From Escherichia coli (lineage in GTDB: Bacteria; Pseudomonadota; Gammaproteobacteria; Enterobacterales; Enterobacteriaceae): a stretch of 64,000 bases of DNA. This document shows, one piece after another, positions 5,112 through 31,775 of the stretch. The stretch lies in the NCBI RefSeq assembly GCF_045037415.1, contig NZ_CP173438.1. One strand, given 5' to 3'. The translations under genes were made by a program, and so were the position numbers. Within the stretch, counting starts at the first letter, position 1, and the number at the start of each line of letters is the position of its first letter. The notes beneath the pieces were generated by a model. It worked only from the letters and a program-made list of their open reading frames with translations, did no database searches and was not told where the DNA came from.

Positions 5112-6419
<1,308 letters not shown>

Positions 6420-29404: not shown

Positions 29405-30289
29405 ATGAAAAAAACATTACTGGCAGCCGGTGCGGTACTGGCGCTCTCTTCGTCTTTTACTGTCAACGCAGCTGAAAACGACAAACCGCAGTATCTTTCC
29501 GACTGGTGGCACCAGAGCGTTAACGTTGTCGGAAGCTATCACACCCGTTTCGGACCGCAGCTCCGCAACGATACCTACCTTGAGTACGAAGCATTCGCTA
29601 AAAAAGACTGGTTCGACTTCTATGGTTATGCGGATGCGCCGGTATTCTTCGGCGGTAACTCCGATGCAAAAGGTATCTGGAACCACGGTTCTCCGCTGTT
29701 TATGGAAATCGAACCGCGTTTCTCCATTGACAAGCTGACCAATACTGACCTTAGCTTCGGTCCGTTCAAAGAGTGGTACTTCGCGAACAACTACATTTAC
29801 GACATGGGTCGTAATAAAGATGGCCGCCAGAGCACCTGGTACATGGGTCTGGGTACCGACATCGATACTGGTCTGCCGATGAGCCTGTCCATGAACGTCT
29901 ATGCGAAATACCAGTGGCAGAACTACGGCGCAGCGAACGAAAACGAGTGGGACGGTTACCGTTTCAAAGTGAAGTACTTTGTGCCGATTACCGATCTGTG
30001 GGGCGGCCAGCTGAGCTACATCGGCTTCACCAACTTCGACTGGGGTTCCGACCTGGGCGATGACAGCGGTTATGCGAACAACGGTATTAAAACACGTACC
30101 AATAACTCTATTGCGTCCAGCCATATTCTGGCGCTGAATTACGATCACTGGCACTACTCTGTCGTTGCCCGTTACTGGCATAACGGTGGTCAGTGGAATG
30201 ACGATGCAGAACTGAACTTCGGCAACGGCAACTTCAACGTTCGCTCTACCGGCTGGGGTGGTTATCTGGTAGTAGGTTACAACTTCTAA
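29405..30289 (+). CDS. tsx: Nucleoside-specific outer-membrane channel Tsx (phage T6 / colicin K receptor)
   Basis: ORF 29357..30289 trimmed to Met17 (294 aa) [22 protein letters not shown] signal peptide; beta-barrel-like aromatic-rich sequence ending ..GYNF. Confidence 0.9.
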
Positions 30290-30299
30290 TTGTGAGAAT

Positions 30300-30325
30300 G
30301 CCGGATTTCATATCCGGCATTTTTT
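30300..30325. terminator. Terminator between convergent tsx and yajD
   Basis: GCCGGATTTCATATCCGGC hairpin followed by TTTTTT on the plus strand, between the two stop codons. Confidence 0.8.
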
Positions 30326-30326
30326 A

Positions 30327-30674
30327 TCACTTCTTCTTGTTCATCATCGCTTTCAAATCAGCGAATGGGTTGTACTTCGCTTCACCGACATCTTTCTGCG
30401 CATCTTCCCCTGCGATAACGGTCGTACCATACTGATCCGCTTCGGTGTATTTCGAATGCTCATGATCGTGGCAATAGAGACAAAGTAATTCCCAGTTACT
30501 GCCATCTTCCGGGTTATTAGTATGGTCGTGATCAATGTGGTGAACGGTAAGTTCACGCAGGTTGGAATAAACAAACTCGCGGGAACAGCGACCGCAGACC
30601 CACGGATAGATTTTTAATGCTTTTTCGCGATAGCCGCTTTCTAACCGCGCATAGTTTTTTGGGATGATAGCCAT
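30327..30674 (-). CDS. yajD: HNH endonuclease-family protein YajD (function unknown)
   Basis: ORF 30327..30743 trimmed to Met24 (115 aa); HNH-like motif HHIDHDHTNN..CLYCHDHEH. Confidence 0.8.
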   Translation of the reverse strand: MAIIPKNYARLESGYREKALKIYPWVCGRCSREFVYSNLRELTVHHIDHDHTNNPEDGSNWELLCLYCHDHEHSKYTEADQYGTTVIAGEDAQKDVGEAKYNPFADLKAMMNKKK

Positions 30675-30751
30675 GAAAAAGTTACCTGGATGAAATGTAG
30701 GGTTACGCGCAGTTTCCCAAGATGCGGGGATTTTCGCAATCACCTTACATC

Positions 30752-30780
30752 AAAAAAAATCCCGATCTTCTGACCGGGAT
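30752..30780 (-). terminator. Rho-independent terminator after secF (end of the yajC-secDF transcript)
   Basis: AAAUCCCGGUCAGAAGAUCGGGAUUUUUUUU on the minus transcript, ~25 nt past the secF stop. Confidence 0.8.
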
Positions 30781-30803
30781 TTTCAACATCAGCTGAAACT
30801 TGA

Positions 30804-31775
30804 TTAAGGCAGAATTGACGGCTGATCCGCCCCTTCTTTTTCCACTTTCTGCTGCAACATGTGTTCGCGCTTCATACCCAGTTTCAGAGCCAGCGCAGAT
30901 GCCACATAGATGGAAGATGCAGTACCGATGGAAACACCGATAAGCATGGTCAGCGAGAAGCCTTCCAGTACCGGACCACCGAAGAGGTACAGCATCAGGA
31001 TAACCATCAAGGTAGTACCGGATGTGATCAAGGTACGGTGCAGCGTCTGGGTCAAGGACACGTTAAAGATTTCGTAAGGCGTACCGCGACGGATCTTGCG
31101 GAAGTTTTCACGAATACGGTCCGATACCACGATACTGTCGTTAAGCGAGTAACCGATAACCGACATCAACGATGCCACAATGGTCAGGTCAATCTCGATA
31201 TGGAATAACGACAAAATACCCAGCGTAATGATAACGTCGTGCGCCAGCGCAATAACAACCCCTGCCGCCAGTCGCCACTCAAAGCGGAAACCAACGTACA
31301 CGAGGATAGACAGCAGCGCCGCCATCAACGCCATCGCACCGGTTTGCGCAAGGTCTGCCCCCACGCTCGGACCGACGAACTCAATACGCTTCACTGCCGC
31401 ATTCTGATTGGTGGATTCGTTAATCACCTTCAGAACCTGGCTGCCCAGCACCTGACCACCGGTTTCGCCTTCAGCAGGCGGCATACGGACCATGATGTCG
31501 TGGCTGCTACCAAAGTTTTGCAGCATCGGCTCTTCAAAACCGGCTTTTTGCAATGCATCACGCATTACGTCAATTTCAGCCGGTTTTTCGAGCGTAATTT
31601 CAATAACCGTACCACCGGTGAAATCCAGCCCCCAGTTAAAGCCGCGCACGCCCATAATAACGATAGCGGCGATTAACAGCAGACCAGAGATGCCGAAAGC
31701 CCAGTAGTCCCAGCGCATAAAGTCATAGACTTTACGGCCGTGGTTTAGTTGTTCAACAGTATATTCCTGTGCCAC
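30804..31775 (-). CDS. secF: Protein translocase subunit SecF
   Basis: ORF 30804..31820 trimmed to GTG at codon 16 (323 aa) (V/M)[27 protein letters not shown]; GAGGAG SD upstream. Confidence 0.9.

Follow-up and report, generated by a model that had tools for sequence, protein, structure and literature searches.

The gene yajD lies on the minus strand of a 64,000-nt stretch of the Escherichia coli genome (NCBI RefSeq assembly GCF_045037415.1, contig NZ_CP173438.1), hereafter the window, and encodes a 115-residue protein (MAIIPKNY...MMNKKK; full sequence, MAIIPKNYARLESGYREKALKIYPWVCGRCSREFVYSNLRELTVHHIDHDHTNNPEDGSNWELLCLYCHDHEHSKYTEADQYGTTVIAGEDAQKDVGEAKYNPFADLKAMMNKKK). On its upstream side, secF is encoded on the same strand and ends with a stop codon at 30804; a terminator-like hairpin comes next, and the yajD ATG is reached 80 bp beyond it. 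On its downstream side, tsx is encoded on the plus strand, with its stop codon at 30289, and is convergent with yajD, and the two genes have in common a hairpin that is a candidate bidirectional terminator (Table 1). The hairpin and T-run after secF imply that yajD is its own transcription unit, a monocistronic gene flanked by two terminator hairpins. No open reading frame (ORF) is present in the gaps of 37 bp and 129 bp on its two sides. The ORF coordinates and the position of the secF hairpin agree with the initial annotation, made from the sequence alone, which placed yajD convergent with tsx and just 3′ of the secDF terminator.

The window gene is the known E. coli yajD (b0410), an already named gene of an already named family, and does not represent a new kind of system. 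In particular, the product scores 210.3 bits with the NCBIfam equivalog NF008448 ("YajD family HNH nuclease"; cutoff 87, residues 2-113, 113-position profile), and residues 27-75 match Pfam HNH PF01844 (E = 1e-12, 48.4 bits against a cutoff of 21.4). These matches, together with a ratio of non-synonymous to synonymous substitution rates (dN/dS) of about 0.01-0.05, indicate that yajD is not a chance ORF. The name of NF008448 records a domain assignment and no tested function, and the window protein is the family itself, with no difference from it.

The product contains both strings on which the initial annotation had based its reading of a 115-residue protein with an HNH-like motif: HHIDHDHTNN at residues 45-54, and CLYCHDHEH at residues 65-73. 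An AlphaFold (AF2) model built with a 50-sequence alignment has a predicted local distance difference test (pLDDT) score of 75.7 overall and of about 86-92 in the core, and supersedes a single-sequence model that was unusable (pLDDT 36.6). The model comprises N-terminal helices (residues 8-12 and 15-22), a first β-strand (β1; residues 42-46) ending in H45-H46, a loop (residues 47-60), a second β-strand (β2; residues 61-65), and a helix (residues 66-82), followed by a low-confidence linker (pLDDT about 53) and a short helix (residues 107-112). The modelled arrangement of the core matches the ββα-metal fold that defines the HNH/His-Me finger superfamily. Structure comparison of the model yields scores of 6.1 for the ZRANB3 HNH domain, 5.6 for McrA, 5.6 for the phage GVE2 HNH protein, 5.4 for DotN, 5.0 for Cap5, and 4.5 for Gme HNH, and Foldseek returns DotN, T4 endonuclease VII, Cap5, McrA, Gme HNH, and Cas9 HNH, none of them at E ≤ 0.001. 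The fold scores are modest, yet all informative matches are HNH folds.

Conservation was counted over 348 family proteins covering the HNH core. The cysteines predicted to bind zinc (C27-x2-C30 and C65-x2-C68) are 97-99% conserved; H46, N60, and H69 are 98-99% conserved; and H45 falls within 97-99%, as do D57-G58, W61, E62, E72, and H73. N60 precedes β2, and H69, E72, and H73 are located on the helix of the core. We assigned residue roles from the register with Gmet_0936 (Gme HNHE) of Geobacter metallireducens (PDB 4H9D), a stand-alone HNH protein with zinc ligands C38/C41/C73/C76 and a putative active site formed by D53, H54, N68, and N77, which shows weak Mn2+-dependent nicking, prefers acid- and heat-treated DNA containing apurinic/apyrimidinic (AP) sites, and is a proposed repair enzyme (PMC3765158). 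The spacing in YajD (14 residues from H46 to N60, 5 from N60 to C65, and 1 from C68 to H69) is identical to that in Gmet_0936, such that C27/C30/C65/C68, H45, H46, N60, and H69 are in the same register; the two proteins differ in that they are only about 18-20% identical, belong to different sequence families, and have different last metal ligands (N77 in Gmet_0936, H69 in YajD). Judged from these residues, the active site of YajD looks complete, and the two C-x2-C pairs have the form of a structural zinc site, with metal binding predicted. The HNH assignment of the initial annotation is thus borne out by the Pfam and NCBIfam profiles, the alignment-based model, the fold matches to solved HNH domains, and the near-invariant catalytic and zinc residues; the structure prediction and HNH comparison that it had proposed return a ββα-metal fold with informative matches exclusively to HNH folds.

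The core is connected to the C-terminal end of the protein by a variable, net-acidic linker. In most relatives, 26-29 residues (about 27) separate the end of the core from the proline of a C-terminal motif, and residues 76-100 of E. coli YajD have a net charge of −4. The conserved C-terminal peptide that follows is a newly described point about the YajD family. Its consensus is A-T-x-[NQ]-P-F-A-[ND]-L-K-x-[LM]-[LM], followed by lysines or other basic residues (K-K), with P103, F104, A105, and L107 at least 90% conserved. A pattern search found the motif in 187 of 250 relatives with an intact core, ending 6-9 residues from the C-terminus; many of the other intact-core proteins are fragmentary metagenome calls. 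Considered as a helix, the tail is amphipathic and net positive, with a hydrophobic moment (muH) of 0.5-0.67, and by this crude measure its moment and charge are numerically similar to those of the MinD and FtsA membrane-targeting helices. The strict conservation of P-F-A-x-L would fit a protein-docking motif better than generic membrane binding. To our knowledge, the tail does not resemble the consensus of β-clamp-binding, SSB-tail, or FtsZ C-terminal peptides.

Table 1. Features of the yajD locus, with coordinates in the window.
Feature	Coordinates	Strand	Basis and remarks
yajD coding sequence	30327..30674	-	ATG at 30674, 115 codons + TGA; ORF translation, NCBIfam match
N-terminal helical lead-in, residues 1-26	30597..30674	-	Conserved R16, L20, P24 (92-93%)
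HNH/His-Me finger core, residues 27-75	30450..30596	-	PF01844 match, AF2 model
Variable net-acidic linker, residues 76-98	30381..30449	-	Alignments; pLDDT about 53
Conserved C-terminal peptide, residues 99-111, AKYNPFADLKAMM	30342..30380	-	Alignments, pattern search
Likely Shine-Dalgarno sequence AGGT	30684..30687	-	Read from sequence; inside block (A/C)CAGGTAAC
Interval that must contain the yajD promoter	30675..30754	-	Between secF terminator and ATG; position inferred only
secF terminator-like hairpin, 13-pair stem then T-run	30784..30755	-	Terminator scan and inverted repeat search
Hairpin common to tsx and yajD, candidate bidirectional terminator	30297-30321	.	Inverted repeat search: 10 nt, 100% complementary

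RefSeq E. coli records annotate the same DNA as yajD, with secF and tsx as its neighbours. Of 5426 complete E. coli genomes, 5424 have the gene in single copy and annotated as yajD, in agreement with its earlier description as a core gene, and most E. coli copies are about 98-100% identical to the window gene. Comparison with 40 enterobacterial orthologues gives dN of 0.007-0.11, with synonymous sites at or near saturation for most genera; the dN/dS values cited above refer to the orthologues for which the ratio could be computed. yajD is under strong purifying selection. Relatives are up to 96% identical in Pantoea, about 90% identical in Kosakonia, 65-80% identical in Vibrionales, Alteromonadales, Pseudomonas, and Endozoicomonas, and about 55% identical in Rhodocyclales, a betaproteobacterial order; proteins named YajD family are also found in Myxococcota and Hydrogenedentota. 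A search of 1.84 billion cluster representatives yielded 640 clusters at E ≤ 1e-3, and with only this number the family is compact. Domain fusions were considered as a clue to function and set aside: the fusion of an AlkZ-like domain with YajD is confined to a single metagenome contig of 761 bp, and fusion with BNR was seen just once.

Comparison of yajD loci in other genomes (our loci L005-L084, L088, and L089) reveals that no particular gene stays beside yajD: of 132 flanking proteins taken from about 40 contexts, at most three belong to any one Pfam family, and PADLOC applied to the same proteins gives scattered generic matches, with 1-2 per model. The order secF-yajD-tsx is common to E. 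coli, Salmonella (with an Ldr toxin gene inserted), Kluyvera, and Pseudocitrobacter, while the flanks in Ferrimonas, Vibrio, Accumulibacter, and Propionivibrio are all different. Taking gene names as read from translated ORFs, yajD is presumably near pncA and beside yeaC-msrB-gapA in Citrobacter, between fadE and mtnK in Pectobacterium, adjacent to speD-speE in Pluralibacter, near yggS-yggW in Dickeya and Pantoea persica, and adjacent to ychF in Rahnella. In 61 Pantoea records yajD is on plasmids, with sizes of about 130-930 kb, mostly about 130-180 kb. An adjacency of the Citrobacter type is the probable source of the pncA-yajD module of Hu et al. 2009. Since yajD sits elsewhere in most other genera, its adjacency to the phage receptor gene tsx, which the initial annotation had pointed out, is confined to the Escherichia/Salmonella/Kluyvera group and is uninformative about function. 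The further statement that yajD is not part of a recognisable defence or toxin-antitoxin cassette stands, with secF and tsx as flanks, only weak generic PADLOC HNH matches, and no recurring partner among the flanking proteins. In one Ferrimonas genome (L001 847-3872), a SIR2_2 and DUF87/AAA_10 gene pair is located about 2 kb upstream of yajD; a second Ferrimonas genome (L002) has unrelated genes there, so that a variable segment borders yajD, and the pair may be a defence system.

The sequence preceding yajD is of more than one type. In E. coli, the block (A/C)CAGGTAAC before the ATG, in which the likely Shine-Dalgarno sequence is located, is kept in many Enterobacterales. The interval that must contain the promoter includes the block GGAAACTGCGCGTAACCCTACATTT, which is common to E. 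coli and E. albertii and is present as a diverged version in three 'Enterobacter sp.' genomes with flanks unlike those of E. coli; the upstream block CTTGGGAAACTGCGCGTAACCCTACATTT (30694-30720, minus strand) is likewise identical in E. albertii and diverged in the three 'Enterobacter sp.' genomes. A second type of upstream sequence, comprising about 70-85 bp that include TATGGGATATATT and ACAGGTAAC, and in some members also the same about 12 bp after the stop codon, is found in Dickeya, Morganella, Moellerella, Rahnella, Mangrovibacter, Enterobacter asburiae, and a Pantoea plasmid (loci L020 [Dickeya] 5930-6360, L024 [Morganella] 5930-6360, L012, and L089), with different flanks each time. A more diverged form is found in Rouxiella, in different flanks again. 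The second type spans five enterobacterial families.

In a neighbour-joining amino-acid tree, the proteins of this second type group together, apart from their own families. Counted in codons 1-78, the proportion of synonymous sites that differ (pS) is 0.27 between Dickeya and Morganella and 0.32-0.36 between a soil metagenome-assembled genome and Dickeya or Morganella. Most pairs from different families reach 0.7-1.0, and E. coli and Salmonella, whose copies are syntenic, reach 0.76. These values come from about 55 synonymous sites, without a genome-wide baseline and without modelling of codon usage, and, with a standard error of about 0.06, the difference is real. No terminal repeats or target duplications were seen. 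These patterns suggest that a cassette consisting of promoter and gene has sometimes been horizontally replaced or relocated; they are not evidence for an active mobile element.

Several characterised systems are similar to YajD in part. Bacillus subtilis HlpB (YisB) is a small (100 residues), conserved, chromosomal, stand-alone HNH-type protein with no fused domain, for which DNA binding with no cleavage detected, a genetic interaction with AddAB, and an implication in DNA repair are reported; hlpB adjoins addAB and sbcCD, and its deletion is reported to be lethal unless addAB is removed. YajD differs from HlpB in failing the HlpB model NF058586 (13.4 bits against a cutoff of 130), in being non-essential, and in having no conserved neighbour; in particular, no repair genes recur among the 132 flanking proteins. 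The best PDB sequence match of YajD is T4 endonuclease VII (E = 0.008), which is also among the fold matches and has in common with YajD the pattern H-x-D-H-D-H ... LLC-x-x-C and a four-cysteine zinc site. Endonuclease VII is a domain-swapped dimer. It differs from YajD in length (157 residues), in sequence family (YajD has no match to PF02945 at E ≤ 1), and in metal ligand (N62 in endonuclease VII, H69 in YajD). The YajD model has H46, the second histidine of the HH pair that closes β1, as putative general base. The human ZRANB3 HNH domain (19% identity) is one domain of a large helicase, and its likeness to YajD is in fold only.

Phage free-standing and terminase-associated HNH proteins are similar to YajD in matching PF01844 and in core identity (47-51%), with PHROG HNH matches at E down to 6e-12 and BFVD structures down to 3e-4, and differ from it in lacking the YajD tail and in having extra N-terminal parts, while yajD has no phage neighbours. 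Phage genomes yielded no full-length YajD relative, the best matches being 47-51% identical over residues 27-86 only, without the tail. A phage terminase-associated HNH protein of the HK97 gp74 type was rejected as an identity for YajD, given the flanks secF and tsx and the lack of full-length relatives in phage records; a free-standing homing endonuclease is disfavoured given a protein of HNH core and tail only, the presence in 5424 of 5426 genomes, and the dN/dS of 0.01-0.05; and a colicin- or pyocin-type HNH toxin or toxin-antitoxin system was rejected given the monocistronic gene with no adjacent small immunity or antitoxin ORF. As a separate observation, Escherichia phage Av-05 (L092 563-5419) has its DNA polymerase split by annotation into three pieces, with three genes for HNH endonucleases lying between or after them; one of the three genes, which encodes the nearest phage relative of the YajD core, interrupts the split polymerase gene, a homing-endonuclease context.

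A literature search found no paper characterising the function of YajD, in line with the initial annotation, which had stated that it has no established function. Two studies report on mutants. In Salmonella Typhimurium, cbpA/yajD and ychN/yajD double mutants have raised H2O2 sensitivity (PMC3878590), and in E. coli, yajD was placed in a set of orphan genes with predicted membership in COG category J (translation) (Hu et al. 2009). YajD is not listed in the supplement of the Peptidisc membrane interactome.

The results above directly support the reading frame, the family and fold of its product, the conservation of residues, the selection on the gene, its distribution, and its lack of conserved neighbours; a catalytic activity, a DNA substrate, a role in repair or recombination, and docking of the tail are inferred. 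Specifically, and with about even confidence, we propose that YajD may be a stand-alone HNH nuclease with weak, nonspecific DNA nicking or processing activity directed by structure or by a partner, a role in DNA repair or recombination being our best guess. In the proposed mechanism, C27, C30, C65, and C68 would hold a structural zinc; H46, at the end of β1, would act as general base and activate water; N60 would brace the hairpin; and H69, with H45, would hold a catalytic divalent metal for cleavage of the phosphodiester bond. Nicking or cleavage of DNA would be weak and sequence-nonspecific: because YajD has no sequence-reading domain, nonspecific cleavage is expected, with targeting supplied by the structure or damage of the substrate or by a tail-bound partner. 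The directing substrates might be nicked, abasic, or branched DNA; alternatively, direction might come from a partner bound to the C-terminal amphipathic peptide on its flexible acidic linker, which may also damp non-specific DNA binding. The gene would function by itself, as a unit of one gene equipped with a promoter and a terminator of its own, and would be kept as a host gene by strong purifying selection. The guess of DNA repair or recombination draws on the endonuclease VII-like motif, the structure-specific nucleases among the fold neighbours, the analogies to Gmet_0936 and HlpB, and the oxidative-stress phenotypes of the double mutants.

Several points weigh against this proposal. The link to DNA repair comes from analogy and from two double-mutant phenotypes, and the literature searched yielded no biochemical assay of YajD. 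Deletion of yajD alone in Salmonella Typhimurium gives no growth, stress, or mouse-virulence phenotype (PMC3878590), and in E. coli yajD is listed as a non-essential orphan, with deletion-colony sizes on amikacin, neomycin, streptomycin, and tetracycline that are, by eye, not distinctive in the raw data (Hu et al. 2009). The tail could equally be a membrane-targeting helix or an autoinhibitory element. The close structural analogues include HlpB, which is reported to bind DNA without cutting it, and the best Foldseek match (E = 0.02), DotN/IcmJ, which is part of the type IV coupling complex of Legionella as one of its subunits and is not known to be a nuclease.

These analogues are the basis for an unlikely alternative in which YajD would be a non-catalytic, HNH-fold zinc-finger adaptor that binds DNA or protein, as HlpB or DotN/IcmJ, with its conserved histidines serving metal or ligand binding. 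The conservation of the full catalytic set H46, N60, H69, and H45 (98-99%), in exact register with the residues mutagenised in Gmet_0936, argues against an adaptor, as does the score against the HlpB model, which indicates that YajD is no HlpB orthologue. The shifting genomic context raises a different alternative, namely that yajD might be a selfish or mobile HNH gene, or have been one until recently, as a free-standing homing-type cassette that spreads between genomes and inserts at new intergenic sites. We consider it improbable, even though the position of yajD differs in nearly every enterobacterial genus examined, the gene is found on Pantoea plasmids, one cassette type recurs across five families, the amino-acid tree is incongruent with families, the Dickeya-Morganella pS is far below that of most inter-family pairs and of the E. 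coli-Salmonella pair, and the nearest phage relatives are inside a split DNA polymerase gene. As a rule, genes for homing endonucleases decay, and the selection pattern of yajD is unlike theirs: the gene is single-copy and near-universal in E. coli, with low dN/dS and with synonymous sites saturated relative to most genera. In addition, YajD has no DNA-recognition domain, the gene has no flanking repeats or target duplication and no close phage homologue (the best has 51% identity, limited to the core, and lacks the tail), and the conservation of the C-terminal peptide points to a host partner that is itself conserved.

Equally improbable, in our judgement, is a single-gene anti-phage or anti-plasmid nuclease that would degrade incoming DNA, possibly at the membrane via the C-terminal amphipathic helix. 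HNH is a common defence effector, YajD has a weak PADLOC ZorE match and resembles in structure the HNH domains of Cap5 and McrA and those associated with retrons or Cascade, yajD is portable and bears signs of horizontal exchange, the Ferrimonas gene borders the variable segment with the SIR2 and DUF87 gene pair, and the tail resembles the MinD and FtsA helices in amphipathicity and charge. Defence genes are typically patchy and fast-evolving, whereas yajD is near-universal in E. coli and extremely conserved; moreover, it has no accompanying sensor or partner gene, the PADLOC matches among its neighbours are scattered, and the conservation of P-F-A-x-L fits a protein interface better than membrane binding. 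As a known PADLOC defence system YajD was rejected, with domain-level ZorE matches only (residues 22-76, E = 4e-7) and no partner genes in the flanks. Least expected would be an action on RNA or in a translation-linked process, to which we assign a very slight likelihood: the predicted translation set of Hu et al. 2009 includes yajD, and HNH enzymes such as colicins can cut RNA as well as DNA (His-Me finger review), but the category J assignment is given without its basis and may reflect the closeness of yajD to tgt-yajC-secDF, a feature specific to E. coli and not kept in other genomes, and the deletion colonies on the four translation antibiotics are unremarkable by eye.

Returning to the nuclease proposal, a more specific form of it, which we regard as possible although rather doubtful, is that YajD may be a portable single-gene genome-maintenance nuclease whose tail docks on a conserved hub (protein or membrane), encoded in a promoter-gene cassette that has been repeatedly relocated and exchanged among Enterobacterales with the protein almost unchanged. 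If this were true, E. coli DNA metabolism would gain a previously unrecognised nuclease together with a new docking motif. Few E. coli genes without experimental evidence of function are conserved as strongly as yajD, and an intact chromosomal nuclease active site without an immunity partner would imply tight control of activity, for which the conserved C-terminal peptide provides a concrete handle for finding the controlling partner. The substrate of YajD, once identified, could add a component to a bacterial pathway of DNA repair, recombination, or other nucleic-acid metabolism. The present analysis confirms the annotation of yajD and adds the intact active site, the C-terminal peptide, the absence of a conserved partner, and hints of cassette relocation and horizontal exchange.

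Other features of the locus concern transcription and start-site choice. A terminator 3′ of E. coli yajD has been detected as a Term-seq 3′ end and validated in vitro (PMC12207403), and the hairpin between yajD and tsx in the window is its candidate counterpart; in addition, in vivo RNET-seq located a NusG-suppressed pause site inside yajD (PMC10268239). A scan for the σ70 consensus upstream of yajD found no site, and an Rfam search around yajD gave nothing above threshold. A σ32-like reading of the upstream block (CTTGGGAAA-N-CCCTACAT) was considered and is not claimed, the spacing fitting poorly. A repeat search at yajD found the two terminator hairpins only, with no terminal repeats and no target duplications. 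An in-frame GTG at 30743 (30675-30743, minus strand) would extend the ORF to 138 residues; we rejected it as the true start, since relatives across orders comprise 110-117 residues and start at the position of the ATG (30674). Some database entries of 138-139 residues (P0004, P0006, and P0022) probably use an upstream start of this kind.

Residues 23-50 (30525-30608, minus strand) show a recurrent sub-threshold likeness to the eukaryotic C2H2 zinc fingers of ZBTB17 and SALL4 (E 0.003-0.7), with the pattern P-x-x-C-x2-C-x3-F...H-x3-H in common. Kinship with C2H2 zinc fingers is considered unlikely: the comparison of the family profile with PDB sequences is sub-threshold (E about 0.03-0.04), and the likeness is probably a chance C-x2-C...H-x3-H spacing.

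The spacer between yajD and tsx is variable (loci compared: L005 6349-6386, L006 422-500, and L088 4786-4893). In the window it comprises 37 bp with the hairpin (30290-30326). In the E. coli representative of GTDB and in E. albertii, it contains a palindromic element that looks like a repetitive extragenic palindromic (REP) element; the E. albertii element is GCCTGATGCGCTA(C/T)GC(C)TTATCAGGCCTAC, and the GTDB E. coli locus stops partway through the element. In Salmonella, the same position is occupied by a type I toxin gene of the Ldr family.

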